Of a stretch of DNA of 64,000 bases, positions 1,877 through 61,609 are shown in pieces; position 1 is the first letter of the stretch; each line of letters starts with the position of its first letter. The position numbers were made by a program, and so were the translations under genes. The notes beneath the pieces were generated by a model, which saw only the letters and a program-made list of their open reading frames with translations, had not been told where the DNA came from and made no database searches. Origin of the DNA: a virus (Duplodnaviria > Heunggongvirae > Uroviricota > Caudoviricetes); IMG/VR virus record IMGVR_UViG_3300045988_166199, positions 9,605 to 73,604 of that record; one strand, 5' to 3'.

Positions 1877-3217
1877 ATGACCGAACTTTGCCATACAGGA
1901 CGCGGGCTGTCCGAAGAGTTTGATGAAGATTTCCAGAACAGACTGACGGCATATTTTTGTCGTGATCACGAGTTTCTTACTCGTGCGGGAGATCTGGTTG
2001 TGCCTAGCCAATTTGCCAATGCGGCCAATGCCATATTGGTTAATATGGTTTCGGGCTATTACCGTATGTACAAGAGCGCGCCTTCTTCATCTGCGATTCT
2101 GGATATGCTTAAGCGCGCGAAACGCGATAAGACCATCCGTGAGGAACTCTTCCCGGATGTTGTTGCTGCGTTTAAGCGCATCCTTGCAGAAAAATTGTCT
2201 GATACCTCGTACATGGTTGACCAGGTATCCACATTCGCAAAAAGTGTAGCGTTTGATGATGCTCTGATTAAAGCTGCTGAACTGAAAGAGAAGGGCGACT
2301 TTCAGGGGGCGATGGCAATCATGGCCAAGGTTCAGCAGATAGGCTCGAACGAAGCGACCGGAATCTATGACTACTACACCTCCGCAAGTGAGCGATTGAA
2401 AGCGCGTGAATATGAGGCTTCAGAGGAGTATGTGCCAAACAGCATTACAACTGGACTCCCTCTGCTCGATAGGTTGCTGTACCAAAAAGGCTGGGCGAAG
2501 CGTGAAATGGTGCTCTTCATGGGGTTCGCTAAATCCGGCAAATCGACCGCAATGGGTGAGTTTTCCATAAACGCAACGCTTGCTGGCTACAATGTTCTGT
2601 ATCTCTCGCTGGAGGTTCACACCACCATTTTATCCGACCGTTTTGATGCAAGATTGTCGGAGACAGAAATGTCCAAGCTGGTGGAACGGCGCGATGAGGT
2701 TCATCGTAAGTTGGCAGAGTTGGGAGCCACGAAGGGGATTGGTAGTTTGTGGGTGGTTGAGCGTCCGTCAGGAAGTATGTCACCGGCAGATCTGGACCGT
2801 ATGCTTAACAGCATGAAAGCCAACGGCATGGTGCCTGACATGGTTGTTGTCGACTACGCAGATTTGATGCGTGCCAGTTATGACCTTCGTGATGATCGCG
2901 CCAACATTCGTAGTATCTACACCGATTTACGTGCTCTTTATGACAAGCATAACGTTGCTGGTATCACGGCGTCGCAAACAAACCGTGAAGGTGGCGCGTC
3001 AGAAGTTGCCACAATGATGCACGCTGCCGACAACATCGAAAAAGTACGTATTGCTGACCTGGTAATAACGATCAACAAAACCGAAGAAGAAGAAGCGAAA
3101 GGAGAGGCTCGTCTCTACTTTGCTGGTTCGCGTAACCAGCAGGGAGGGATCAGCATTCGCGTTAAACAAAACCTCGAACAAATGCGCTTCATTGAGCGAA
3201 TCTTAGACGTTACCTAA
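1877..3217 (+). CDS. DnaB-like replicative DNA helicase
   Basis: Walker A GFAKSGKST, Walker B-like DMVVVDYADLM, SQTNREG motif typical of DnaB/gp4-family helicases; extended RBS context AAAGGAAAGCACATG; immediately upstream of primase. Confidence 0.75.
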   Translation: MTELCHTGRGLSEEFDEDFQNRLTAYFCRDHEFLTRAGDLVVPSQFANAANAILVNMVSGYYRMYKSAPSSSAILDMLKRAKRDKTIREELFPDVVAAFKRILAEKLSDTSYMVDQVSTFAKSVAFDDALIKAAELKEKGDFQGAMAIMAKVQQIGSNEATGIYDYYTSASERLKAREYEASEEYVPNSITTGLPLLDRLLYQKGWAKREMVLFMGFAKSGKSTAMGEFSINATLAGYNVLYLSLEVHTTILSDRFDARLSETEMSKLVERRDEVHRKLAELGATKGIGSLWVVERPSGSMSPADLDRMLNSMKANGMVPDMVVVDYADLMRASYDLRDDRANIRSIYTDLRALYDKHNVAGITASQTNREGGASEVATMMHAADNIEKVRIADLVITINKTEEEEAKGEARLYFAGSRNQQGGISIRVKQNLEQMRFIERILDVT

Positions 3218-7710: not shown

Positions 7711-9029
7711 AAAAGTTGATCGCACTTAAGCATAAGCTGGACGAAATGAAAGCTATGGGAACCAATGCAAAAAAAGAGGCATTGGCCAACATGGATGACT
7801 TTGAACAAAGCATGGTTTCATTGATGCTCAACCCTTTCATCCGTTTTGGGGTAAAGAAATACAAAGTGGCAGAGCCGCTTAGTGAGTCCGTCCCAAGTGA
7901 CGAAAAAGCCATTGATGTACTGAATAAGCTGGCCTCTCGCGAGCTGACGGGGAACGCAGCAATAGCTGCTGTTGAGTCTATCGTGGCGTCAATGTGCGCC
8001 GATGGGCAGGACGTCTTCCGTCGTTTCCTCTTAAAAGATCCGAAAGCTGGCGTTGGGATTAGCCTATGCAACAAGGTTTTTGAAAATCCCATTCCGAAAT
8101 TCGAGGTGCAGCTGGCGTCACCGTATAAAGAAAAAGGCGACAAATACCCCTTCAAGCCAAACCCTAAAGCAAAATGGCCGATGATTGGCAGCCTTAAGCT
8201 CGATGGTTTGCGAGTAATTTGCGAGGTTATTGTTGACGAAGAAGAGGTTAACTTCCTTTCTCGTACTGGTAATCCAATCACGTCTCTCGATCACCTAAAG
8301 CCAGCCATGCTCGAATTAGGCAAACTTTCAGGCCACAAACACATCTTCTTCGATGGTGAAGGCACAGCCGGTTCATTTAACCAGTCCGTATCTGCATTGC
8401 GCAAAAAGAACGTGCAGGCAATTGGCGCTATTTATCATGTTTTCGACTTCTTCCTACCGGAATGGCGAGCACAGGCTAAATCCAAAGAGTATGCAAAGAC
8501 AGGTATGAAGCTGAAAGAGCGCCTGGCTATGCTCGTGGCGTTGTTCAAAAACGATCGCAGTGAAGGCTACGCACAAGACATTCACCTGCATCCGTTCTAC
8601 ATCATCCATAGCCACGAAGACTTCATCGAACGCTTCATGAAACGCCTGGACGATAACGAAGAAGGGGAGATGGGCAAAGATCCGAACTCTGTTTACGAGT
8701 TTAAACGTACCCGCAGCTGGTGGAAGTTAAAAGACGAAGATTCAGAAGATGGTGAAATTATCGATTTTGAGCCGGGCGACCCGGACTCTGGTTTTGCCAA
8801 CACGCTTGGGAAAATTGTTATTCGTCTTGAAAACGGCGTCATCGTTCGTGCGAGCGGCATTAAGCATAAATATCTGGACGAGATCTGGAACAACAAAGAG
8901 AAGTACCGTGGTCGTATTGTCGAGGTTCATTGTCACGAGAAAACACCTGATGGCAGCTTACGCCACCCACGACTGAAATGGCCGCGTTGCTTACGCGATA
9001 CCGAAGATCGAATCGGAGATAAAGAATGA
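7707..9029 (+). CDS. ATP-dependent DNA ligase
   Basis: Motif I KLDGLR (KxDGxR adenylation lysine), motif V-like SWWKLKDE; T4 ligase-like. Confidence 0.8.
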   Translation: MKKLIALKHKLDEMKAMGTNAKKEALANMDDFEQSMVSLMLNPFIRFGVKKYKVAEPLSESVPSDEKAIDVLNKLASRELTGNAAIAAVESIVASMCADGQDVFRRFLLKDPKAGVGISLCNKVFENPIPKFEVQLASPYKEKGDKYPFKPNPKAKWPMIGSLKLDGLRVICEVIVDEEEVNFLSRTGNPITSLDHLKPAMLELGKLSGHKHIFFDGEGTAGSFNQSVSALRKKNVQAIGAIYHVFDFFLPEWRAQAKSKEYAKTGMKLKERLAMLVALFKNDRSEGYAQDIHLHPFYIIHSHEDFIERFMKRLDDNEEGEMGKDPNSVYEFKRTRSWWKLKDEDSEDGEIIDFEPGDPDSGFANTLGKIVIRLENGVIVRASGIKHKYLDEIWNNKEKYRGRIVEVHCHEKTPDGSLRHPRLKWPRCLRDTEDRIGDKE

Positions 9030-9241
9030 TCGTATTAAGTAAACGGGAGAAAGAAACGCTTCATGAAATAAGTAAGTGGCCGGAGTTCCCTGAGTACTGG
9101 AAGCCTAAAACGCGAGCTAAGTTAGAGCGTTTAGGGTTGGTTGCAAACGTTTCTGAAACGTGGCGCTCGGCCAACTACCAGTTAACTGATAAAGGGAAAT
9201 TATTGCTACAGCAATTAGTAGAATCAGGAGCCTTTAAATGA
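9026..9241 (+). CDS. hypothetical protein (71 aa)
   Basis: ORF overlapping ligase stop. Confidence 0.4.
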   Translation: MIVLSKREKETLHEISKWPEFPEYWKPKTRAKLERLGLVANVSETWRSANYQLTDKGKLLLQQLVESGAFK

Positions 9242-9388
9242 TTCCATACATCTCATTGGCTTTTATGGCTGGCTTCCTTATCGGCTTCGGCATCTGTCAT
9301 GATTTGATTAAGCAGGAACTTAAAACCAAAACACTGTGCATCGGAAAGCGCGTGTATCGAGTAGTTCATGAAACAAAGGTGAAAAAAT
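9239..9388 (+). CDS. small membrane protein (about 49 aa, below ORF-track cutoff)
   Basis: ATGATTCCATACATC... hydrophobic ORF MIPYISLAFMAGFLIGFGICHDL; its first 24 nt are repeated at 10250 and partly at 15045. Confidence 0.35.
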
Positions 9389-9677
9389 GAGCAAGTTAAC
9401 TTCTTGGGAATGGTGGTTGGTCACCTATTTCTTAGCGGCCGGAGTCGCATTCGCCTTTTACGTAGGTCAGTTAGTCGTAAAACTGTTGCTGATTAAATTT
9501 GCTAGTCATAAACGTATCGATGATGGTCTGTGGCGTCTTGGCACCCTGGTGGAAACTCGCTACGGGCAACTTAAGGAGAACGAAACCATTACTATCCAAG
9601 CGAAACAATTCACTGCCACCATCACAAGAACACCTAGTCGTAGAGTGGCCTTGATCAAAAAAGTCACAACCGAATAA
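9387..9677 (+). CDS. putative membrane protein (96 aa)
   Basis: N-terminal hydrophobic helix WWLVTYFLAAGVAFAFYVG. Confidence 0.45.
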   Translation: MSKLTSWEWWLVTYFLAAGVAFAFYVGQLVVKLLLIKFASHKRIDDGLWRLGTLVETRYGQLKENETITIQAKQFTATITRTPSRRVALIKKVTTE

Positions 9678-10454
9678 AAATACAATAATAAGTATTTACT
9701 TACCTATCTTTTATGTATAAGATGACTTTGTTTTCGTTGAGACGCGACTGTTTGAACTTAAATACAAGTGCAAACGAAGAAGTCTATCTGGCAGTAGCCT
9801 AATAAGCCAAACACCAGCGAGGTCAGTTTCCAGCCTCGTTACCGAAATGGGACACACTGAGCGAGTGTGATTGCAGAACGCAGGAGGGAACATGAGAGTT
9901 CCCTCCGATGAAGTAACAGAATGGGCGGTCAGTATATTTTCAACTCATATACGACTCCCGGATTCTTAGCCAATGACCGCCCATCCTGTTACGTCATTTT
10001 GTTCAATTATGTCGTTTATACTGGGTTAAAAAGCGGCGACGTAGCCCGGCTGGTATGGTTAGCCAGCACACAACGTTGAGGCCATTACATTTTTATCAAT
10101 TCTAAGGTTCTATTCACAGAGATACCGGCGAGCGTTGATATGTAACATGTTGGGCAAACATTCAATCGGAGTAGTGGCCTCAACGTTGTGAAGACAGGAT
10201 TGTTGTATAGGTTTAACCACTGTTGCCATTAGTGCCTGTTTTCACAACAAATGATTCCATACATCACATTGTATAAATTACAAAGTAGGTGCTGTCCTCA
10301 GAAACATCATCTACTTAAAGATTTTGCCTTCTATTGAGCGAAGTCGAAAACGTCTGGCACTAACGGAAAGTGCCAGTAGCGGTGTGTTTCCTGGCAGAAA
10401 CTAACACCGCCGCGATTGGCACTGTTGAGTAATAAATACTGGCAGTGCTGAATT

Positions 10455-10529
10455 GATGGTGTAGCTCAGCGGTAGAGCAGTTGGCTGTTAACCAACTGGT
10501 CGGTGGTTCGAATCCACCCACCATCGCCA
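10455..10529 (+). tRNA. tRNA-Asn (anticodon GTT)
   Basis: Cloverleaf: acceptor gatggtg/caccatc, anticodon loop ctGTTaa, T-loop ggttcgaatcc, 3' CCA; sequence differs from host asn tRNAs. Confidence 0.8.
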
Positions 10530-10534
10530 ATTTA

Positions 10535-10621
10535 GGGGAGTTAGTCCGTAGAGGTAGCGGGACAGACTGTAAATCTACTGTCATTGCGACTCGGGTGGTT
10601 CGACTCCATCACTCCCCACCA
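10535..10621 (+). tRNA. tRNA-Tyr (anticodon GTA)
   Basis: Acceptor ggggagt/actcccc, anticodon loop ctGTAaa, long variable arm, ggttcgactcc T-loop, CCA. Confidence 0.8.
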
Positions 10622-10625
10622 AATT

Positions 10626-10701
10626 GCCGGTTTAGCTCAGTTGGTAGAGCGCCTGCCTTGTAAGCAGGATGTCAGCGGTTCGAGTCCGTTAACCGGCACC
10701 A
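10626..10701 (+). tRNA. tRNA-Thr (anticodon TGT)
   Basis: Acceptor gccggtt/aaccggc, D-arm tagctcagttggtagagc, anticodon loop ctTGTaa, T-loop ggttcgagtcc, CCA. Confidence 0.75.
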
Positions 10702-10925
10702 ATACAACGATAAGATCATTACGGTTAATCGTCGTTCATGTGCACAATGACTGGTCGAAAGGTAGTGATCTTACCGTTGTGGTGGATTCGCAGACTGATG
10801 CGATAGCTTTCTTGGATGTTAGGGAAATGCGGCCGCAAATCTTCCCTTTCGCGAGCGGTGATCGTCCGTAGTCCTAATTGGCTGCACCGTATGCCGGAGA
10901 TTCAGTACCGGCCACCACAACGGCC

Positions 10926-11012
10926 GGAGAGTAGGGAGCATGGTGCTCAAGCGGTCTTGAAAATCGTCCCATTGTGCAAACGATGATGGTTCGATTCCAT
11001 TACTCTCCGCCA
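10926..11012 (+). tRNA. tRNA-like gene with long variable arm (possibly tRNA-Ser, anticodon TGA; atypical D-arm)
   Basis: Acceptor ggagagt/actctcc, T-loop ggttcgattcc, CCA end; anticodon stem weak and D-loop short, so isotype uncertain. Confidence 0.5.
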
Positions 11013-11167
11013 GACACAGCGTTGAGCGGTTTGGCCTTTTAATCAACTCGATTAAGACTCCGCTAACATAAACCAGACCGCTCAACGCTGTGATTGACAA
11101 TTACGGCAGACGTTCTTAACCATAGCTTGCTAACATCCTAGCAACACTTTTTTTCAGCGCAATATTC

Positions 11168-11190
11168 AAAGGGGCTTCGGCCCCTTTTCT
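11168..11190. terminator. hairpin terminator (bidirectional)
   Basis: aaaggggc ttcg gccccttttct. Confidence 0.5.
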
Positions 11191-12402
11191 TCAAAAAAGT
11201 TTTATAAATTCATAATTCTGGTCAATTAAGGATTCAATACACACCATGCAAAAATCTACATCGTTAAAATCAGGTGTGTAATATTCATCCTCATAACATT
11301 CATTTAGACCTTCAATCAATTTTTCTTTAAAAACTCCCCACGTTTCAATATGAACCATTTCCATATAAGGCGCATGTGTATGTACTTGCAATACATCCCA
11401 GGTGTCTATAACCTCGATCCGCGGCTTGCAATTAATTTTTTCTAAATATGCCCTCCCAGAATTGTAAATTTTCGACATTGATGCCCCAAAACCTGATGGT
11501 TGGTAATGAGTGTAAATGTCATAAATTTTTTGTCCTATTCTAGGGAGTTGAGAAGCATTGGATATTTGTGGCGAATGAAAGTATCGCTCTATGGAAGAAA
11601 ACGCAGAAACATTAACTAGAGTAATCGTATATGGTGCTAAAGTTCTCTCGTTCAAATTTCTACATAAAATAGCAAACCCATGGCTATTAGTCTTTTCACC
11701 GTCTGAGGACATTTTTGCCATGCTGGCTTTAATAACATTCAATTTCGAATGTAAACGAGAAGTGGAAGTCGGTTGATTATACATTTCATCATCATACAAA
11801 CATATATGAAACCCGCCAAGATGACGAAATGAGAACTTGAGTGCTTCTTCCGCAATAACTAATTTATTAATATCTAAAGGAGTAAGTGATACGTTACCTT
11901 GTAAATCATAGCAAGGTTCTAAACATAGAAAGTTTTTCTTCTGCCACACGATCATATTAAAAATAAAGTGTCTAACCAAAGGTGGCCAGTCAGGTGATAT
12001 AAGTACATTGGTAATATCTCCATCAGACAAGTATGACAAGTAACTTTTTAGTTCCGCAGCATATGCCACTAGCTCAGTTCCAGCTTCCCTTGTTGGTGTT
12101 GAAAAATTTTTTAACTCAATAAGAACTAAGGATTCATTCTCTGTTGAATAAGCAACGACATCAGGTCTTAATATCTCAGATTTTGTTGCTGAGATATTCT
12201 CATCATCTGTCATTAAATGTAACAATGTTATGTTCTTTAAACAAAACTGATAACTCTCCTTAATTTTTTTCTCTTCGGGTCTTTTCGGATTAAATTCATT
12301 TAATTTATCAATATTGATGATTGAATTATATAATCCATCTTGATCAGATAATTTGTCAATTATCCAATTTTGCATTTCCTTTTCGCTTAAAAATATTGAC
12401 AC
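11191..12402 (-). CDS. hypothetical protein, downstream partner of Abi-like gene (403 aa; AbiGii-like size; possible PD..(D/E)xK-like motif)
   Basis: Co-directional, 26-bp spacing from upstream gene; AT-rich codon usage; segment ILRPDVVAYS...LVLIELK compatible with a nuclease-type D...ExK motif (inference only). Confidence 0.55.
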   Translation of the reverse strand: MSIFLSEKEMQNWIIDKLSDQDGLYNSIINIDKLNEFNPKRPEEKKIKESYQFCLKNITLLHLMTDDENISATKSEILRPDVVAYSTENESLVLIELKNFSTPTREAGTELVAYAAELKSYLSYLSDGDITNVLISPDWPPLVRHFIFNMIVWQKKNFLCLEPCYDLQGNVSLTPLDINKLVIAEEALKFSFRHLGGFHICLYDDEMYNQPTSTSRLHSKLNVIKASMAKMSSDGEKTNSHGFAILCRNLNERTLAPYTITLVNVSAFSSIERYFHSPQISNASQLPRIGQKIYDIYTHYQPSGFGASMSKIYNSGRAYLEKINCKPRIEVIDTWDVLQVHTHAPYMEMVHIETWGVFKEKLIEGLNECYEDEYYTPDFNDVDFCMVCIESLIDQNYEFIKLF

Positions 12403-12428
12403 TAATTAGGCTCCCGTTAAACCAAAAA

Positions 12429-13295
12429 TTAAAAATCTTGCTTTACTTTATCCATGGTCAGAATTTTGCTAATAATTGAAGATTCAAATCCATCTAAACC
12501 TGAGAGAAAGTTAATTAGCTTTTGGATATGTTGTTCTTTAGGTATAAGTATATATTTTATATCATTGAACTCAAAATCAATGCCAAACTTTGAAAATTTT
12601 GAGCTAATTTTTGCTTTGTCATCAGAAGTGATAACACGCTCCAAACTCAGACTAGGCCATAAATCACCAATAAAAGGAGCTGGCACATAACGCCACTCTT
12701 TCTCGTCTGCATATATATAATTCTCTATTGTTTTATTATCTTTTCGCTCTAGCTTGCCTCTGTAATTTTTCATATAACGCAGTAAATTATATAGATCAGA
12801 ATATTCTGCTTTCAATTTCTCAAACTCTATTCTGTTTTTGGTATCTAAATTTCCTCTAGCCTTCCAAAGCGGCACCAACTTATTTTTAATAAGTCGAATT
12901 CTGGCATTGTATTTAGAAAATATTTCACTACTCTTATTCATATATAGAACTGGGTGTAGACCTTTCTTTTCCGCCCAAGACTTAGTTAGCCCAAGACCGA
13001 ATTCTCCATATTTTCCGCTATGATCTCTGATTTGTGATAGTTTTATGTCACAAAACGATACCATTGGTACTGCAAACCTCCTGCGTCCCCCGACTCCTCT
13101 TATTTCCTCGCGAGCAAGAAATGGTTTAAAATATTTCTCAGCCAATATGCTATAGAAAGCATCTTCGTTTTTTGTAAAATGAAACAACGTGGTTGGATGA
13201 AGACTATAAACAGATTCAACATTCGCATCAGGATTTTCAAGGATAGTCATTTTACACCTTGTGGAAAGCCAGTTTAGTTCTGTAAATAGTATCAC
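12429..13295 (-). CDS. abortive-infection-like protein (AbiGi-like, 288 aa)
   Basis: Motifs LFHFT, VPMVSFCDIKLSQ, YGEFGLGL.K.WAEKKGL.PVLY resemble AbiGi-type proteins as recalled from memory; AT-rich; first gene of a two-gene operon. Confidence 0.55.
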   Translation of the reverse strand: MILFTELNWLSTRCKMTILENPDANVESVYSLHPTTLFHFTKNEDAFYSILAEKYFKPFLAREEIRGVGGRRRFAVPMVSFCDIKLSQIRDHSGKYGEFGLGLTKSWAEKKGLHPVLYMNKSSEIFSKYNARIRLIKNKLVPLWKARGNLDTKNRIEFEKLKAEYSDLYNLLRYMKNYRGKLERKDNKTIENYIYADEKEWRYVPAPFIGDLWPSLSLERVITSDDKAKISSKFSKFGIDFEFNDIKYILIPKEQHIQKLINFLSGLDGFESSIISKILTMDKVKQDF

Positions 13296-13399
13296 ACGAC
13301 AGGCGGCTATTCTTCTATCAATAAATGATAGGTAAGCACTTACTTTTTACGCACGTTAACTGTATAGTTCTTTCGGATACTCACTTGAAAGGACTCAAT

Positions 13400-13543
13400 A
13401 TGGGAAATAAATGTAAACATGCGCGTCGCGCATCTCGTCAGGTGCAGAAGTCAAATCCATACATTCACGAGCACTACCACCTCAGCTCTTTCACTAACCG
13501 CTACACGTTCCCCAGCGAAGCGCATAACGAGGCAAAGCAATGA
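13400..13543 (+). CDS. small basic protein (about 47 aa; ORF track 13325..13543)
   Basis: Internal ATG start MGNKCKHARRASRQ; stop overlaps glutaredoxin start (ATGA). Confidence 0.3.
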   Translation: MGNKCKHARRASRQVQKSNPYIHEHYHLSSFTNRYTFPSEAHNEAKQ

Positions 13544-13785
13544 CGATCACTATCTATGGACGAGATAACTGCTCATACTGCAAACGTGCGGTCGAGCTGG
13601 CGAAGCAGCTTCACGGTCACGGTTTTGGCGATTACGAATACATCGATATTGTGTCTGCTGGGATAGACAAAGAGAAATTGAGCGCCCTGGTTGGCAAGCC
13701 GGTGGAGACCATACCGCAGGTGTTCGTAAATGGCGAATCTATCGGTGGCTATACGGAATTCGCCGCTCTGGTGAGTACATTATAA
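13540..13785 (+). CDS. glutaredoxin-like protein (NrdC/NrdH-type)
   Basis: CxxC active site CSYC near N-terminus, 81 aa thioredoxin-fold pattern, C-terminal GG.YTEF; followed by terminator. Confidence 0.8.
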   Translation: MTITIYGRDNCSYCKRAVELAKQLHGHGFGDYEYIDIVSAGIDKEKLSALVGKPVETIPQVFVNGESIGGYTEFAALVSTL

Positions 13786-13788
13786 TTA

Positions 13789-13811
13789 AGAGCCGCTTAG
13801 GCGGCTTTTTA
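13789..13811 (+). terminator. rho-independent terminator
   Basis: agccgc ttag gcggc ttttt. Confidence 0.7.
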
Positions 13812-13977
13812 CATGAAAGTGTGCGCTCAAATCAACTATATCTATGAAAAGGACAGTTATAAATATTAAAAATATCTAAAATCCCTTCCGATATATGAAT
13901 TATCAGATTAAAATTTCACACAATGTGCTTTTAATGAGTTATTATTTCACCTTTTGTTGCCTTTACAGTTTAGGTTT

Positions 13978-14967
13978 TCACGTCACGATTATTCTTTTAC
14001 CTTGTCTATCTTTAATCTCAGTCACATACCCTTTCAGTGCCTCTTCATTTAGTAACAGAGCCTCTAATTTCATATCACCAATGATAATGGAGTATATAAG
14101 GTTATAATATGCACATAGTTTTTCATGTATTTCAGGAGAAATGTTTCTACCACGGTGATAATCCATTCCATAAACCGAATCAATTCCTGAGTTCACTATC
14201 TTCATCTGAATTTCAAAAAAATCATTATTTAAATCAAAGTAAACAATAGGGACCTCATATCTTCTGCTAGAAAAATCCATTGGTGATAGATAGTTAAGAC
14301 CATTTGCACTGACCTTCACTTGAATTCCAGCCTGTATACCTGAATTCGACGTTGGAGCAGAAATAAGTAATTGAGAAAGTGGGTCTCGTTTGTCTATCCA
14401 CACAATGTCCCGTTGAGTATCATTAGGTTGATATTTAGTAGGATAGTTAATTTTCGTATAGTTGAGTCCAGTCCCAACAGCTTTATAATTAGACAAACTA
14501 TCTGTGAAAGGGGTATATCTCTTTGCTAATAATGCCCAGTTTTCATTTTGTTTCGCGTTTTTTTCACATTCTTCAACAATGAGTGCTTCCGCAATTTTAC
14601 CTAATATTCTCATAGTTGTTTTATGGGGATCTAGTTCGATAATGATGTTTGACTTGATCACTCCTTCTTCATTAATACCAACAAGACCTAACTCTTTATC
14701 CATGAGTTCAAATAAATTTTCCCCATGCTCAATTGCTAACAAAGCTGAAGGTCGTGATAATAATGAAGAGTTATTCCAATCTCCGAGGGAGATATCCAGA
14801 CCTAAATCAATACCTTTAGTCGTCACTACTAGCTGAGGTTTGGGAGGCGTAGCCCCTAATAACTCAGATAGCGTGTTGACTTCCGGTGTCTCTTTTATCA
14901 TTTTTCTTATCCTGTTGCAGCGATCGCATGACAATACTATAAAACCAGCCATTTTCAAGTAAATCAA
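13978..14967 (-). CDS. hypothetical protein (329 aa ORF; likely start at internal Met MIKETPEV with AGGA RBS)
   Basis: Long AT-rich ORF between glutaredoxin and integrase; no confident domain. Confidence 0.55.
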   Translation of the reverse strand: MIYLKMAGFIVLSCDRCNRIRKMIKETPEVNTLSELLGATPPKPQLVVTTKGIDLGLDISLGDWNNSSLLSRPSALLAIEHGENLFELMDKELGLVGINEEGVIKSNIIIELDPHKTTMRILGKIAEALIVEECEKNAKQNENWALLAKRYTPFTDSLSNYKAVGTGLNYTKINYPTKYQPNDTQRDIVWIDKRDPLSQLLISAPTSNSGIQAGIQVKVSANGLNYLSPMDFSSRRYEVPIVYFDLNNDFFEIQMKIVNSGIDSVYGMDYHRGRNISPEIHEKLCAYYNLIYSIIIGDMKLEALLLNEEALKGYVTEIKDRQGKRIIVT

Positions 14968-15044
14968 TTACCTTTTAGGTGATGAAGATAAAAGTGAAGC
15001 CAACCCCTCCGTTCGAAAAGATAGATTCAAAAAAATCGCCCCCC

Positions 15045-15077
15045 AATGATTCCATACCTACTATGTATGGAATCATT
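15045..15077. promoter_or_regulatory. perfect 12-bp inverted repeat with 9-bp spacer upstream of integrase (candidate recombinase core site or operator)
   Basis: aatgattccata cctactatg tatggaatcatt; left arm also occurs as direct repeats at 9237 and 10250. Confidence 0.5.
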
Positions 15078-15175
15078 ACTGAAAATGAGTTACTTTTACT
15101 CTTGATCCTATAAGAATCTATGCCTAATATACTGTTTACTTATACAGTGCATCGGCGTAACTCGGTGATTGTCAT

Positions 15176-16279
15176 ATGAAAAATAGCTTTGACAGAGCAC
15201 GCGCTGCGGAGAACACCTCAAAAGAGGCGATTGAGTATCTCGAAAGAGCATCTCAAATGCAGGCCGTTATGATCTCCCAGGTCAGCAATGACATGAGATT
15301 CTCGGACGCATTCATGTTATTCACTCGCTTATCTCTGCTGATAACAAGACGTCGGCCAGAGATCGCTGTTCATTGTATTTTGATACATGTTTTGCCGCAC
15401 ATTGCCGATGTAAAAGTAAGTGATATTAATAGGTTCATGGTGAACCAACTGGTCAACCCACTAATACTGGATGGCAAAATTGTTATGGGTCGCCGCGTTT
15501 TCTCTCTGATGAAGCAGTTCCTCAGCTGGTGCGCCTTCCAGGGGATGATCGACGTGTCACCGTTAAACGATATGTCACTTAACAAAGTTGCCGGTGGCGC
15601 AAAGCCCACACCTCGCGAGCGGAAGCTGACCGACGCAGAGGTATGGGTGTTCTGGAATATATGGGACTACTTCAATGTGTGTGCTGGTACAAAATGGGCG
15701 GCCAGGCTATGTCTTGTATCCGCAAGACGACCTGACGAAGTACTGCGGGCTAAAAAAAGTGAGTTCAATCTTAAGCGTGGGGTTTGGAATCAAGGCAAGA
15801 GGAACAAATCTGCCCGTGAGCATTCTCTGCCTTTAAGCTCATTAATGCGCACATGTATTGAAGAGTTGTTCGAATATGGTAAAGACAGCCAGTGGCTCGT
15901 GCCTTCGAATAAAAAAATCGGGAAAGACCTTCCTATGTCTAAAGTGGCAATAGCCCAGGCATTACGTCGTATTCTGGAACGACCAGAACTGATGGAGCTT
16001 GAGCCATTTACACCCCGAGATTTGCGCCGTACTGCGCGTAGTTACTTCCCAGCATTAGGCATAAGCCAGGAGGTATCACGTAAAATCATGAACCACAGTC
16101 TTGAGGGGATAGATCGGGTCTACGACCGGCACGATTATATGGACGAGATGCGAGACGCCTTAGAAAGTTTCTCGACGTACATCGCATCAATCGTAGAGCA
16201 ACCGGATTTAGACGAAATTGACCACAAATTTAAGGGAGATCGTCTATCAACAGAGCTTATTCGTGTAAATTTTTCATAG
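15176..16279 (+). CDS. tyrosine-type site-specific integrase
   Basis: C-terminal catalytic motifs: R in LVSARRPDE, RDLRRTARS box II, NHS...RVYDRHDY with tyrosine nucleophile; lacks a recognisable P4-type N-terminal arm-binding domain. Confidence 0.8.
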   Translation: MKNSFDRARAAENTSKEAIEYLERASQMQAVMISQVSNDMRFSDAFMLFTRLSLLITRRRPEIAVHCILIHVLPHIADVKVSDINRFMVNQLVNPLILDGKIVMGRRVFSLMKQFLSWCAFQGMIDVSPLNDMSLNKVAGGAKPTPRERKLTDAEVWVFWNIWDYFNVCAGTKWAARLCLVSARRPDEVLRAKKSEFNLKRGVWNQGKRNKSAREHSLPLSSLMRTCIEELFEYGKDSQWLVPSNKKIGKDLPMSKVAIAQALRRILERPELMELEPFTPRDLRRTARSYFPALGISQEVSRKIMNHSLEGIDRVYDRHDYMDEMRDALESFSTYIASIVEQPDLDEIDHKFKGDRLSTELIRVNFS

Positions 16280-16666
16280 AGACTTTATGGCCTCAACAAC
16301 CTTTTGTGATGCGCCTTTCTCTTTACCGAATCGCTCGTTATATGCAGCAAGAACCTGTTTTTCGTCCTCGTTAAGAGGAGCAGTGCCTTCTTTGTATAAA
16401 AATGCTGCGAGTTCGGGTTGGCGTTCTTCCAGCACCATCATCATAAGACGACTTGGCTCAATACCCAGTGCCAGCGCCAGCGGACGAACCTTATCGATAG
16501 GCAAAGGAATTTTGCCGCTTTTAATTAAAGAAAGGTTGTTGGCGTTTTTATACCCAATTGTTTTGGCTATCTGGGCCTGGCTCATAGGTGAGGATTCAAT
16601 CAACCCTGCGATAAAAGCAGCGTAGCGACTTTCTATAAATTCAATCTTGTTATCAGACATGGTCAC
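16274..16666 (-). CDS. XRE-family helix-turn-helix transcriptional regulator
   Basis: HTH motif SQAQIAKTIGYKNANNLSLIKSGK; convergent with and overlapping integrase 3' end. Confidence 0.7.
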   Translation of the reverse strand: MTMSDNKIEFIESRYAAFIAGLIESSPMSQAQIAKTIGYKNANNLSLIKSGKIPLPIDKVRPLALALGIEPSRLMMMVLEERQPELAAFLYKEGTAPLNEDEKQVLAAYNERFGKEKGASQKVVEAIKSL

Positions 16667-16911
16667 AACCTTTGCGCGTTCAATTCTCTCTGGTAAGTGC
16701 TTACCGATATTACATCAAAGGTTAGGGTTGTAAAGCTATTATCATTTTTTTCGATAGGCACTTAAAAGACCGGTTAAAGGCCATTGCACGGAGAAAAATT
16801 AGCCCAAAATAGGTAAGAAAAGTAACTTGCATATGATATGAATGTATTCAGTATTGATACAAATTTTAGTAGTATTCCTTACCATAGTATAAGTTAGAAT
16901 GGATTGATTGA

Positions 16912-17124
16912 ATGAACACCACTATTTCCAGCCTAATCGCTCTTGAGATCGGACACGTACAAAAATTAGCTGTTGAGTGTGTAACAGACATCCTTACCGA
17001 TCTACCGAATGAGCAGATTCAGGTTGGTGTGAATGACACCACTGGCTTTATATTCGAACTTAACAACAAACGCTTCACGCTTCTCAATACCGGCTCCGGG
17101 TCTTTAGCCGTCAGAATCTGTTAA
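16912..17124 (+). CDS. hypothetical small protein (70 aa)
   Basis: ORF in intergenic region, followed by hairpin ctgcgcgaa...ttcgcgcag. Confidence 0.3.
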   Translation: MNTTISSLIALEIGHVQKLAVECVTDILTDLPNEQIQVGVNDTTGFIFELNNKRFTLLNTGSGSLAVRIC

Positions 17125-17222
17125 CCCCTCTTCTCCCTGCGCGAATGGCTTAGTTCCCTGTTCGCGCAGTGCTACATTAAACACACTAGTAAATAATTTG
17201 TTTTCATAACAAAGGATTAGCC

Positions 17223-20664: not shown

Positions 20665-20868
20665 GTGCGTAAAGGATGTTTCGGCTCTCTTATCGCTGCT
20701 TCTGAAACTGGCAAGGCTTGTCTGGTGTGTCCAGACAAGCCCGATTGTCACCAATCAGCAAAAGAAGTTGCGATTTCGATGTATGGGAAATTCGTAGGCT
20801 TCCCCAATGACAAAATCAAAAAAACCAGAAAGGTAAAAACACATGAAGGCTCTGATGGTTCGAACTGA
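20665..20868 (+). CDS. small Cys-rich hypothetical protein (67 aa)
   Basis: ORF between AAA+ gene and polymerase; CxxC-like cysteines; overlaps polymerase start. Confidence 0.3.
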   Translation: MRKGCFGSLIAASETGKACLVCPDKPDCHQSAKEVAISMYGKFVGFPNDKIKKTRKVKTHEGSDGSN

Positions 20869-23800
20869 CTTCTCTCTTGGGGAGTCGGCTCTAAAAGCAG
20901 AAAACGCGGTGAAGATTGCCAGAGAAGCTGGCTACACCGCTGTAATTTCGGCAGATAGCATGAATATTGCGAGTGTTATTCCACTACAACGTGCCGCTGG
21001 TGACGACATGGCGGTTATTTGTGGTGTGAAACTAAACATTGTTGATGATCCCACATACGAGCACCGGGCTAAACTTGCTAAAGAGTCTATGGGATGTATG
21101 GAATCATTAGAGCGTGGGCGGAACTACTCCTTTACCGCTCTAATTAAAAATGAGCAGGGATATCGAGACATCTGCGAACTAATGACGGCGGCCAACACAC
21201 GAGAACAGTTCTACTTTGTACCGCGTCTCTCGCTCGAACAGTTGGTTTCTACATATGCCAAAGGCAACATCATCCTGCTCACTGCCGACATCGGTAGCGT
21301 GTACCAACGCAACGATTTTGCAAAAATCATAAGCTCACTGATTACAGCGGGTGGAAAAAACAACTTCTATAGTGTGGTTTATCCGCACCCTACCCCATTC
21401 TACGACCAGATTAACGTCCGGGCGATGAAAGTCGCCAGCGCACTGAAAATAGAGCCAGTAGCGTTCTATCCCGCTTATTACGAATCGATCGACGATGCAG
21501 ACATTAAAGACATTGCGCACATGGTTACGAACAACATCAAAATCGACCAGCCGCATCGTCTGCGTATCCCCCACCAGCGAGATAACGCCGTCAATGGTCG
21601 CCGCCATCTCCTTGAGGCGCTGAAAGCCTTCTCCGTTCGCATGGATGTGCCGGTAACAGCCGCAATGGCCTCAACAACGCAGGATACCATTATCGATGCC
21701 TGCACATGGCGCTGGCATGAATTGCCACCAGCACTGCCAAAGATGGCAGACGACGAGCCTGCAACGCTGATGAAACTGGCCGTTGCTGGGCTGCGTAAAC
21801 GTCTTACCACAAAAGAGTTTGGCTACACACCACCGGCTTCTGAGAACAGGGTTTATGTTGAGCGACTTAAGTACGAAATGGACACGCTTACTCGCCTGGG
21901 ATTTTGTGGTTACTTCCTGATGGTACGCGATCTGATGAATCACAGCCGTGAAACTGGCATTCCTGTCGGGCCTGGTCGTGGTTCCTCCGCTGGCTCTTTG
22001 GTGGCATGGTGCATAGGCATAACCAACGTCGACCCTATCCGTCACGGTCTTCTGTTTGAACGTTTCATCAACCCTGAGCGTCTCGACTTGCCAGATGCGG
22101 ACTTGGACTTCAGCCAGGCACGTCGCCATGAGGTGATCGAGTATCTGAATGAACGCTACGGCGAAGATTACGTTGCAGGCATTCCGAACTTCACCTACCT
22201 GGGCGCGGCCTCTGCACTACGTGACACCGCTCGTATTTATGGTGTGGAGTCCGCAGATATGGCGGTATCAAAAGAACTGAAGAACGTCGAGGATGATAGC
22301 CTTCCATTGGAAGAGCTGCGCGAACAACTGGCAAGCCTCGACAAATACGCGACAAAATATCCTGATGCATTCAATGCAGCCTGCAAGTTACAAAGCCTTA
22401 TGCGTGGCTATGGTAGACATGCGGCAGGGATGATCGTAGCAGGTGTTCCTCTGACAGAACGAACACCGGTTGAACGACGTGGTGACGCGCGTTGTATCGC
22501 ATTTGACAAGCGTTACTGCGAGGCTATGGGCCTAATTAAGCTGGACGTACTTGGCCTGGCGACTCTCGATTTGCTCGATAGTGCAAAACGCTACATTAAA
22601 GAGAACACAGGTGAGGATATCAATCTTGATGCCATTTCTCTTGAAGATCGCAAGGTGCTGGATGGTTTTGCTGCTGGGTACACTCAAGGTGTTTTCCAGC
22701 TTGAATCAGGCCCAATGCGCAAGCTGCTTAAAGATTTAGGTGGTGGAATTGAGCCAATGAGCTTTAAAACGGTCGTTGCTACGACTGCGCTCTTCCGGCC
22801 GGGGCCAATTCAGTCAGGCATGTTGGATGATTATGTTTCTGTCGCCAAAGGCTTTATGACGCCGGAATCATTACACCCCGTTCTTGATGAACTTACCGCA
22901 GAAACAAATGGCGTGATTCTCTATCAGGAACAGACGATGAACGCGACTCGATTGCTTGCCGGCTTCACAATGGCTGAAGCTGACGGCGTTCGTAAAGCGA
23001 TCGGCAAAAAAGACATGGAGAAAATGAAGAGCATGGGTGAGAAGTTCATCGTTCAGGCTCAAGCTGGCTGGATCGACGTTGAGCTGGAAGATGGCACTAC
23101 ACAGCGCATTCACCGTGCGGAACATTTTAAATGCGAAGACGGAACTCTGAAAACTGTCGAAGAGGCACTTGAGTTCGGTGCAAAACTACCTATAAACGCA
23201 GTACGCGTTACAGCGTCACATCCAGGGCTATCAGAGATGAAAGCGAAGGAGATCTGGACCGCATTCGAAAAGAATGGTGCCTACCAGTTCAACAAATCAC
23301 ACTCTGTTGCTTACTCCTTAATCAGTTATCAATCTATGTGGTTGAAAACTCATTATCCCGCAGAGTTTTTCGCTGCTGCTCTCACTATTCTTGGCGAAGA
23401 TAAACACCAGGGGCTGGTTAAAGATGCGCTGACCTATGGTATTCGCGTATTGCCACCAGACGTTAACATGTCATCTAACCGAATCGAGATCCGCACGCTT
23501 GAAGATGGCAGCCAGGTGCTGTATGCGCCCTTCTCTGCTGTGAAGGGGTGTTCTGAGAATGGCTGCCAGGCCATCATGAGAGCGCGAGAAAAGGTTGGCG
23601 GCAAATTCGAGTCACTTGCGCAATTCGAAGAAGCTGTCGAGAAACGTGCCTGTAATAGTCGAGTGCGCGAATCGCTGCAAAAAGTAGGGGCGTTTGCATC
23701 CATCGAGCCAGGTAGTCTGCCAGCAACTGATCCAGAGCGCCTCCGCGACCAGGCTGAATTGATGGGAAACCTTGTCATAGATGCAGTTAAAGCCTCACGT

Positions 23801-24361
23801 CCGTTTGAGATGAACCCCAAACGTTCGGCTGAGATTAACGTGCTCATGACACGGATGGCGGCTGAAATGGGCTTAGGTGATGAACTAATCCGCCCCAGCA
23901 TTGGTATTAAGCCGAAAATCATGATCATTCTGGACAATGCGAACGGCAATGATGCTCGAACCGGTTACTTTATGGAGAACGGATACGACGATTTTAAGGC
24001 CAAGCTATTGACGGCTGGAGATTTACGCATGGGCGATCTCTATGTCACAGGCGTTTGCAAGAAGGTTAAAGACAAAGAAAAAGACTACACCAAAGACGAG
24101 ATCGGCCAGTTCACCGACTTTATGCGTGAAGAGATCAATCTGGTGCGTCCGACCTATGTGCTGACGTGTGGCAGCCGGGCAACGTCGCTCTTCAACAACA
24201 AGATCAAACCATCCGACCTGGTTGGACGCAAAGAGTATCTGCCGGAGCTGGATGTGACTGTTTTCTACGGATTTAACCCGAATATTTTGTACTTTCGCCC
24301 AGAGGAAGGCGAAAAGCTGGAAGCAATTCTGGCAGAGGTAGCGGAGACTATTAGCAAATGA
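20843..24361 (+). CDS. dnaE: DNA polymerase III alpha subunit-like replicative polymerase (PHP domain, DnaE family)
   Basis: Signature GPGRGSSAGSLVAWCIGITNVDP...LLFERFINPER..PDADLDF; 1172 aa. Confidence 0.95.
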   Translation: MKALMVRTDFSLGESALKAENAVKIAREAGYTAVISADSMNIASVIPLQRAAGDDMAVICGVKLNIVDDPTYEHRAKLAKESMGCMESLERGRNYSFTALIKNEQGYRDICELMTAANTREQFYFVPRLSLEQLVSTYAKGNIILLTADIGSVYQRNDFAKIISSLITAGGKNNFYSVVYPHPTPFYDQINVRAMKVASALKIEPVAFYPAYYESIDDADIKDIAHMVTNNIKIDQPHRLRIPHQRDNAVNGRRHLLEALKAFSVRMDVPVTAAMASTTQDTIIDACTWRWHELPPALPKMADDEPATLMKLAVAGLRKRLTTKEFGYTPPASENRVYVERLKYEMDTLTRLGFCGYFLMVRDLMNHSRETGIPVGPGRGSSAGSLVAWCIGITNVDPIRHGLLFERFINPERLDLPDADLDFSQARRHEVIEYLNERYGEDYVAGIPNFTYLGAASALRDTARIYGVESADMAVSKELKNVEDDSLPLEELREQLASLDKYATKYPDAFNAACKLQSLMRGYGRHAAGMIVAGVPLTERTPVERRGDARCIAFDKRYCEAMGLIKLDVLGLATLDLLDSAKRYIKENTGEDINLDAISLEDRKVLDGFAAGYTQGVFQLESGPMRKLLKDLGGGIEPMSFKTVVATTALFRPGPIQSGMLDDYVSVAKGFMTPESLHPVLDELTAETNGVILYQEQTMNATRLLAGFTMAEADGVRKAIGKKDMEKMKSMGEKFIVQAQAGWIDVELEDGTTQRIHRAEHFKCEDGTLKTVEEALEFGAKLPINAVRVTASHPGLSEMKAKEIWTAFEKNGAYQFNKSHSVAYSLISYQSMWLKTHYPAEFFAAALTILGEDKHQGLVKDALTYGIRVLPPDVNMSSNRIEIRTLEDGSQVLYAPFSAVKGCSENGCQAIMRAREKVGGKFESLAQFEEAVEKRACNSRVRESLQKVGAFASIEPGSLPATDPERLRDQAELMGNLVIDAVKASRPFEMNPKRSAEINVLMTRMAAEMGLGDELIRPSIGIKPKIMIILDNANGNDARTGYFMENGYDDFKAKLLTAGDLRMGDLYVTGVCKKVKDKEKDYTKDEIGQFTDFMREEINLVRPTYVLTCGSRATSLFNNKIKPSDLVGRKEYLPELDVTVFYGFNPNILYFRPEEGEKLEAILAEVAETISK

Positions 24362-61511: not shown

Positions 61512-61609
61512 CGCGCCACCAGGCGAGCGCAAAGCATCGCGCTATTGCACACTTCAAGCATCTTTAATGTATACTGTATGGATAAACAGTACTCTGAGGT
61601 GAAAACGCT

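Follow-up and report, generated by a model that had tools for sequence, protein, structure and literature searches.

What is a short sequence doing when it recurs around a phage integrase gene, and does it mark the borders of genes that the integrase has inserted? The question is raised by a 64,000-nucleotide stretch of viral DNA (IMG/VR record IMGVR_UViG_3300045988_166199, positions 9,605 to 73,604; hereafter, the window), in which a palindrome, denoted P, lies upstream of a tyrosine recombinase gene annotated as 'integrase', and isolated copies of the arm of this palindrome, denoted H1, H2 and H3, are located at some distance on both sides. In an original prediction, the repeats were interpreted as att-like cores delimiting two gene modules, A and B, next to the integrase. 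The comparative analysis described here points to a different answer: P is very probably the recombination site of the adjacent recombinase, similar to lox, and, with moderate confidence, we favor a reading of the sequence data under which P and the recombinase form a multimer resolution system, the H sites are orphan binding sites with a role other than recombination, and the neighboring cargo genes are not captured as cassettes.

This region is 95-97% identical to Escherichia phages Cyrano and CMS-2020a, with Klebsiella phage-plasmids and Salmonella phage SSU5 being more distant. The element combines phage structural genes with a RepB-type replicon and a block of replication genes (helicase, primase, ligase, CobT/CobS-like proteins and DnaE) and, by homology and gene content, is therefore assigned to the Escherichia coli phage-plasmids of the SSU5/pHCM2/pMT1 type. 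Positions 10900-15300 are identical to the E. coli plasmid pEc2-51408 (NZ_CP104116.1, 112,587 bp), and the window corresponds to positions 74787 to 199 of this plasmid, across the record origin. About 200 related loci were gathered from GTDB genomes, IMG/VR, PLSDB, GenBank phages and assemblies, and the site analyses were performed on ~190 of these; clades of homologues are named below by the percent identity of their recombinase to that of the window.

The repeat itself is real. The sequence AAATGATTCCATAC occurs exactly at 9236 and 10249. The two positions share the 17-mer AAATGATTCCATACATC without any difference, and 22 of 24 bases match when the flank is included, as originally predicted. 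The 13-mer core, AATGATTCCATAC, is found five times in the window, at 9237(+) and 10250(+), in the two arms of P (15045(+) and 15065(−)) and, in a copy that had been overlooked, at 21096-21108(−) inside dnaE, compared to 0.002 exact copies expected by chance. When up to two mismatches were allowed, there were 5 matches against 0.66 expected, and none of 100 shuffled sequences reached 5. An additional copy with two mismatches at 11228, near the left border of the cargo region, was rejected as fitting chance (3 such copies vs. an estimated ~1.4 expected). The 13-mer, on either strand, was found in no paper of the searchable literature.

The inverted repeat that forms P had been described as two 12-bp arms with a 9-bp spacer; the repeat stands, and is better described as two perfect 13-bp arms with a 7-bp spacer, its end lying 98 bp from the ATG at 15176, in line with the ~100 bp originally given. 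In every relative with a recombinase at least 84% identical to that of the window, the same 13-bp arms are present in the same place upstream of the gene, and in the 56-62% clades, an 11-12-bp core of the arm is kept (TGATTCCATAC in clades of at least 56%). The arms of P never vary in the ~190 related loci, whereas the spacer comes in 14 forms (among them CTACTAT, CTATTAA, TTGGTAG, TTATATA and TTGTAAG), and P lies 50-145 bp upstream of the recombinase gene in every family member examined. Homologues with 44-50% identity are preceded, at a distance of 64-143 bp, by a 13-7-13 palindrome with different arms, TGACTCCAGAC-N7-GTCTGGAGTCA, in which both arms are altered symmetrically, at the same two positions. 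Sites of this second type are found in Xenorhabdus and Providencia phage-plasmids as well as in megaplasmids of Pantoea, Rahnella and Erwinia, i.e. non-phage elements for which the gene and the site are the only thing in common with the phage-plasmids; the palindrome of Photorhabdus is an intermediate, imperfect version.

Simple sites of tyrosine recombinases consist of two inverted arms of ~13 bp around a spacer of 6-8 bp, located next to the gene. P has this layout, its arm sequence changing with the clade of the recombinase and its spacer being unconstrained. Arms that are symmetric and follow the protein, an A/T-rich spacer that varies freely and a constant position by the gene are what such a site looks like and, therefore, P is very probably the lox-like recombination site of the adjacent recombinase, which is one of two parts of the original prediction that appear to hold. 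The A-rich flank to the left of P, with its CAGAWTT motif and A-run, recurs by P beside otherwise unrelated cargo, and a similar CAGATT string is found on the left of the Pantoea site (read by eye); this flank may be an accessory or DNA-bending element.

Several further observations concern the site. A conserved AAAA is located 5-8 bp to the right of P, and this tract and the left motif may be sites for bending or accessory factors that give the symmetric P a polarity. Three pairs of spacer forms from closely related elements are exact reverse complements (CTATTAA/TTAATAG, TCTATAG/CTATAGA and TTATATA/TATATAA; the loci involved include L004 vs. L007, L104 vs. L122 and L076 vs. L092), and because of these pairs, the central 7 bp of P appear to have been flipped several times relative to the integrase gene, possibly through template switching in the palindrome or through recombination. 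An origin of the site from a tRNA anticodon loop was also considered and rejected, given that the spacers, as judged by eye only, do not consistently fit the loop pattern.

The recombinase belongs to a family that is confined to Enterobacterales, and its nearest outgroup are the P4-type integrases, which are 26-34% identical and contain the PF13356 domain. The NCBIfam model of P4-type integrases was matched at positions 137-393 only, and the recombinase has no match to the arm-binding domains PF13356 or PF09003, as in recombinases that act on simple sites. In the AlphaFold2 model (predicted local distance difference test score, pLDDT, of 83), the N-terminus is all helical, and Foldseek searches with this model retrieved the core-binding and catalytic domains of lambda Int as the best match, followed by Tn1549 Int, Xer and IntI. 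The predicted tyrosine recombinase fold is accompanied by the catalytic Arg/Lys/His/Arg/His/Tyr set: R184/R185, K211, R284, H307 and Y316/Y321 are invariant in 38 homologues, and in the HxxR box of the recombinase, Arg (R281) takes the place of the first His. Cre ranked only 38th in the Foldseek list (E = 0.027), behind the four recombinases named above, and there was no sequence match in PDB. Judging from sequence and the structural model, the system appears to be Cre/loxP-like in layout and to lie outside the Cre family; the spacer length of 7 bp agrees with the lambda/P4 lineage of the recombinase.

In phage P1, the Cre recombinase gene lies beside loxP, in which two 13-bp arms in inverted orientation enclose a short asymmetric spacer, and the system keeps the plasmid monomeric (PMC7969092). 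The element analyzed here similarly has a recombinase gene by a simple site with 13-bp arms on a phage that lives as a plasmid; it differs in the 7-bp rather than 8-bp spacer, in the protein, which is not Cre-like, in the presence of three extra orphan half-sites and in a LexA-like box. Other Cre-type pairs include Dre/rox, Vika/vox, Nigri/nox and Panto/pox, of which Panto is Dre-like, i.e. of a different family from the recombinase of the window (PMC10250229, PMC4957104). Because the published screens for Cre-type systems looked for 8-bp spacers (PMC10250229, PMC4957104), the present site, with a spacer of 7 bp, would have been missed. Papers on phage-plasmids, PMC7969092 among them, mention a persistent tyrosine recombinase without naming a site, and a search of the literature on multimer resolution in pMT1 and pHCM2 found nothing relevant.

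Lambda/P4-type integrases, in turn, resemble the recombinase in protein fold, in the 7-bp overlap length and, for the P4 type, at the identity level given above. By contrast, the recombinase of the window lacks the arm-binding domain, its core site is perfectly symmetric, its extra sites are of the core type and kilobases away, whereas arm-type sites lie within ~150 bp, and it is never chromosomal. The module consisting of the recombinase and the site was identified in 252 of 5,426 complete E. coli genomes, and all 255 occurrences are on plasmids, with none in a chromosome (0/255), in contrast to what the attP/attB sites of an integrative element would produce. When integrated copies were sought among the longest contigs encoding the recombinase, only plasmid-type contexts were found.

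Because the pair is always on a plasmid, the site is symmetric, the arm-binding domain is absent and the same pair occurs on non-phage megaplasmids, multimer resolution is, by analogy, its most likely role. Each 13-bp arm would bind one recombinase monomer, strand exchange would occur in the 7-bp spacer, and plasmid multimers would be converted to monomers, as Cre/loxP does for P1; possibly, cointegrates or terminally redundant infecting DNA would be resolved as well. What is observed are the layout of the site, its conservation and covariation with the protein, its confinement to plasmids and the lack of rearrangements bounded by the repeats; binding, catalysis, multimer resolution and the function of the H sites discussed below are deduced.

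The promoter region of the recombinase gene suggests how expression might be regulated. The motif CTGT-N8-ACAG, i.e. a LexA-like box, has its position preserved in E. coli, Salmonella, Yersinia and Enterobacter-type relatives (84-100% integrase identity) and absent from the 56-60% clades. The only other such box in the window, at 61570-61593, lies just upstream of a gene for an S24 peptidase (UmuD/LexA-like). The placement of the two boxes is suggestive of SOS-linked control, such that the SOS response, via the LexA box over the promoter, may raise the expression of the recombinase.

The isolated copies were analyzed separately. H1, H2 and H3 share a 15-nucleotide core, A-TGATTCCATAC-ATC, or 16 bp when counted as the arm plus ATC, and no second, degenerate arm was found 6-8 bp beyond any of the three. 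The H sites each occur in 26-28 distinct sequences (H1, 28; H2, 26) in which the surrounding sequence diverges; the 11-mer is invariant by the selection of these sequences, whereas each position of the A and ATC that flank it is conserved in at least 90%. In the clade with ~60% integrase identity, the H1 motif is located 3 codons inside the gene. The 16 nucleotides of H3 show no variation in third codon positions, whereas the flanks vary at every third base, such that conservation of H3 overrides codon degeneracy; in clades without H3, the DnaE segment at this position is unrelated. An explanation of the copies as the 5' ends of paralogous small genes was rejected: a genuine gene, one with a Shine-Dalgarno sequence, begins at H1 only, the open reading frame (ORF) that starts at H2 is not conserved (26 amino acids (aa) in the window and 6 aa in other relatives), and H3 is antisense within dnaE.

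A consistent trend was observed in the distribution and the orientation of these sites. The complete 112,587-bp plasmid contains only five copies of the 11-mer core (P and H1-H3), all within 12 kb, and all 349 isolated copies across the 190 loci face P, with (+) copies on the left and (−) copies on the right. In the Klebsiella-type clade, the right-hand copy, facing the same way, is inside the integrase gene (+0.7 kb) and not in dnaE (+6.1 kb), which is an independent placement. Clades with TGACTCCAGAC-type arms contain no isolated copies within 9 kb on either side. In SSU5, where P and the integrase are lost, H2 carries one substitution (TGATTCCGTAC), a single case. Taken as orphan half-sites, the three copies in 112.6 kb have no partner arm, cluster within 6 kb of the full site and are conserved as DNA. 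These observations indicate that H1-H3 are a distinct, strongly selected motif rather than att scars, and that they are probably orphan recombinase-binding sites, by analogy with known orphan sites. They would bind recombinase monomers and play an architectural or regulatory role, not one in recombination.

The closest analogy comes from orphan XerD-binding sites (XDS) around dif in Bacillus subtilis, which are described as acting without recombination (cited in PMC11840125, PMC12322038). The H sites are similar to XDS in that they resemble part of a full resolution site and cluster around it; the difference is that XDS are chromosomal and unload SMC (structural maintenance of chromosomes) complexes, whereas the putative H sites are on a 112-kb phage-plasmid, number three and all face P. 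Accessory repeats are known in other tyrosine recombinase systems, namely, the third element of FRT, DR1/DR2 of the Tn4430 TnpI site and DR1/DR2 of integron attI. In these systems, too, the motif bound by the recombinase is found in additional copies besides the pair around the crossover region, but those repeats are located tens of bp from the core, whereas the H sites are 0.7-7 kb away, on both sides.

A more specific proposal, which we regard as speculative and rather unlikely, is that H1-H3 bracket the resolution site in a polar and functional manner. With recombinase monomers bound at H1/H2 on one side and at H3 on the other, each of them oriented to P, a barrier or a structure bridging the DNA would arise, which might stall replication forks or loop extruders, or insulate the domain of the cargo, integrase and regulator; alternatively, P would be held in a looped complex that favors resolution over fusion. 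If true, the bracket would be a plasmid-scale counterpart of Ter/dif or XDS/dif built from a single tyrosine recombinase, and a P4-type integrase would have become, upon loss of the arm-binding domain, a Cre-like resolvase with long-range accessory sites.

The prediction of a cargo hotspot beside a recombination site was borne out by comparison of the sequences to the left of P. When the window was compared with the three closest phages (L001-L003), homology stopped at the terminator at ~11190 and resumed at 15045 or 15022; when it was compared with 250 E. coli plasmids, nearly every alignment in the region 15040-16300 began at 15045, the first base of the left arm. Among 143 loci, there were at least 30 unrelated 400-bp left flanks next to P, with products including a YafO toxin, HEPN/Toprim proteins, colicin M, an AraC regulator, DUF6645, an AbiGi module and unknown proteins. 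P is the fixed right border of a hotspot for defense, toxin and bacteriocin cargo, the turnover of which appears to occur by ordinary homologous or illegitimate recombination and not by cassette capture at the repeats.

A number of points weigh against the favored reading. Among natural sequences, no product of recombination that crossed over inside P was found, and a plain lox-like site would by itself not favor resolution over fusion. The mechanism may therefore be more elaborate than the one proposed, as the A-rich flank and the H sites might indicate. The abrupt start of homology at the edge of the arm might be due simply to selection that removes any damage to an essential site. The inward orientation of the H sites is inherited within clades and represents few independent events, and these sites could be bound by a different protein. 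Control by the SOS response is unusual for a multimer resolvase, and the count of CTGT-N8-ACAG boxes in the 64-kb window, 2 compared to ~1 expected, is not significant.

Alternative roles of the H sites, as operators, in inversion or in RNA pairing, are less well supported. The first, which we consider improbable, is that a transcription factor, such as the 130-aa helix-turn-helix (HTH) protein encoded at 16274-16666, uses P and the isolated copies as operators, in which case they would not be recombinase sites. P does lie in a divergent promoter region, and the HTH gene is co-conserved with the integrase in phage-plasmids; but this explanation is disfavored because the Pantoea, Rahnella and Erwinia megaplasmids have P and the integrase without the HTH gene or any other shared neighbor. 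Further, the 13-7-13 layout with its freely varying A/T-rich spacer is that of a tyrosine recombinase site, and H1 and H3 are in coding sequences, not in promoters. The operators of the P1 repressor C1 are scattered and asymmetric, whereas all copies here are within 12 kb and not scattered through the genome.

It is still less probable that the isolated copies are working one-armed sites that mediate inversion between H1/H2 and H3 or, site by site, the exchange of modules among phage-plasmids that share a cell. There is a precedent in Rci, the tyrosine recombinase of the R64 plasmid shufflon, the sfx sites of which have one conserved, specific arm by a 7-bp spacer, and in many E. coli relatives, H1 and H3 have 20 nucleotides in common (the arm plus ATCTCAT), in inverted orientation. 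Against this, none of the ~190 loci shows an inverted arrangement and thus the inversion polymorphism of a shufflon, and inversion would cut dnaE. Moreover, conservation of the 7 bp that follow the arm does not extend past ATC, either between sites or between clades, the boundaries of the L044 and L030 mosaics lie 100-450 bp off the sites and, unlike in the shufflon, there is a fully symmetric master site.

We regard as very improbable, and largely refuted already, the model with which this analysis began, namely, that modules A and B were inserted one after the other by the integrase at a single site, in the manner of integron cassettes, leaving the copies behind as att-like cores. The gene content given for the two modules (four tRNAs, AbiGi, glutaredoxin and the neighboring integrase) is accurate, the copies on the side distal to the integrase are in direct orientation, and the hypervariable cargo falls between H2 and P. 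However, module A (9250-10250) and both flanking copies are present in most relatives that reach that far, down to ~60% integrase identity, at a constant spacing of ~1 kb. The few exceptions are L007/L069, the pMT1 type and L080, with breakpoints that miss the repeats, and a search of the relatives for an empty-site form with a single copy found none. Nor does module B have its left edge at 10249, cargo variation starting at ~11190 and ending at 15045. An array of cassettes would have each cargo unit bounded by sites, whereas there is one P per element: two full P sites were found in none of the 190 loci and in none of 113 IMG/VR contigs matching the P pattern. Hybrid junctions and precise repeat-to-repeat deletions are likewise absent from the 190 loci.

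The breakpoints that are observed in relatives lie 55-450 bp off the repeats. SSU5 (L090, NC_018843.1) has no equivalent of 10530-17125 (locus 10500-10660), a gap that spans the cargo, P, the integrase, the HTH regulator and a 70-aa gene, with H1 and H3 kept and neither end at a repeat. The deletion in Buttiauxella ends inside the 50-aa gene, the homology of the pMT1 type stops 55 bp before H2, and in the mosaics L044 and L030/L031 (compared segment by segment for identity), the crossovers fall within shared genes, 450 bp to the left of H3 and 100-300 bp to the left of P. Finally, hybrid att sites that share one overlap would read as reverse complements of each other; because each isolated copy carries ATC after the arm, whichever way it faces, and lacks a second arm, the copies are not attL/attR hybrids. 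Hence, their interpretation as boundaries of inserted modules is not supported.

The least probable explanation is that the isolated motif acts in RNA, with H1/H2 transcripts (AAUGAUUCCAUACAUC) pairing with the complement in the dnaE mRNA at H3 or, in the Klebsiella-type clade, in the integrase mRNA: in every clade, H1 and H2 are on the coding strand and H3 is antisense in a coding gene, and H2 directly follows a structured non-coding RNA region, but the identity of the motif to the arms of the recombinase site would be left unexplained, the rare variants (ATC to ACC) are not wobble-compatible, and no terminator or small RNA-like unit ending at H2 was found.

The coordinates of the features discussed here are listed in Table 1.

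Table 1 Features of the P locus, with positions and strands as in the window.
Feature	Position	Strand	Description
P site	15045..15077		left arm AATGATTCCATAC 15045-15057, spacer CTACTAT 15058-15064, right arm GTATGGAATCATT 15065-15077
A-rich flank	15018..15044		TAGATTCAAAAAAA; in relatives, CAGAWTT and an A-run, 10-27 bp left of P, weakly conserved
Tyrosine recombinase ('integrase', 367 aa)	15176..16279	+	lambda/P4-type core-binding and catalytic domains (Pfam PF00589, PF22022)
Integrase promoter-like region	15102..15149	+	TTGATC, 17 nucleotides, TAATAT; read from sequence
LexA-box-like palindrome	15130..15149		TACTGTTTACTTATACAGTG; directly after TAATAT, overlapping the -10 element
H1	9236..9252	+	AAATGATTCCATACATC; overlaps the stop of a 71-aa gene and the start of a 50-aa gene (MIPYI...)
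H2	10249..10265	+	AAATGATTCCATACATC; just 3' of a structured non-coding region, ~190 bp upstream of the tRNA cluster
H3	21093..21109	-	TAATGATTCCATACATC; within the dnaE-like gene (20843-24361), coding for GCMESL of a variable protein loop
Hypervariable cargo region	11190..15044		left bound, terminator after tRNA-Ser; right bound, P
Cargo genes in the window			403-aa protein and AbiGi (-), glutaredoxin (+), 307/329-aa unknown protein (-)

Several side observations were made in the course of these comparisons. The ~550-nucleotide non-coding region at 9690-10240 (+), between a 96-aa gene and H2, is kept in most of the SSU5-group relatives that cover it. It contains a conserved promoter-like sequence, TTTACTTAC...TATAAGAT, and long hairpins with compensatory changes (GGGAACATGA...GAGTTCCC vs. 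GGGCATG...CATGCCC), and no Rfam family matched this structured region between H1 and H2. Promoter and terminator scans were uninformative. As with some large phage non-coding RNAs, the region is directly upstream of a tRNA cluster (10455-11012; Asn, Tyr, Thr, Ser), which varies between close relatives: Cyrano is without tRNA-Tyr, SSU5 has only tRNA-Asn, and the pMT1 type is without the cluster. Similar tRNA blocks, with 79-93% identity, are found in P1/P7/D6 and N4-like phages.

Within the cargo, at 11191-13295 (−), the AbiGi gene (288 aa) is paired with the gene for the 403-aa protein (phrog_30092), which has a weak HSDR_N-like match and no PADLOC model, and which may be a non-canonical AbiGi partner that replaces AbiGii. 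Between the ligase gene and the 71-aa gene, L001-L003 have ~147 bp extra (2853-3001), whereas the two genes overlap in the window (9015-9030). The Xenorhabdus phage-plasmid L086 encodes, at 13481-15802, a CobS-like AAA_5 protein of 773 aa with a LAGLIDADG_3 match, which probably indicates an inserted intein or homing endonuclease that the E. coli element lacks.

Phage-plasmids of the SSU5/pHCM2/pMT1 type are common, and include pMT1 of Yersinia pestis and the pHCM2-like plasmids of Salmonella. Antibiotic-resistance genes have been reported, in published work, in the same part of these genomes, by the PhoH and DNA ligase genes. Fixing where exactly the cargo hotspot ends should facilitate the annotation and comparison of these elements. 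As a candidate new pair, the recombinase and P could be of use in genome engineering: the spacer is 7 bp long, two arm specificities and 14 spacers are found in nature, and the pair does not belong to the Cre family, nor was it within reach of the published Cre-type screens. For this group of phage-plasmids, P would define the target of the recombinase, and the novel and unexpected part is the presence of putative recombinase half-sites that are conserved inside genes and always face the full site.

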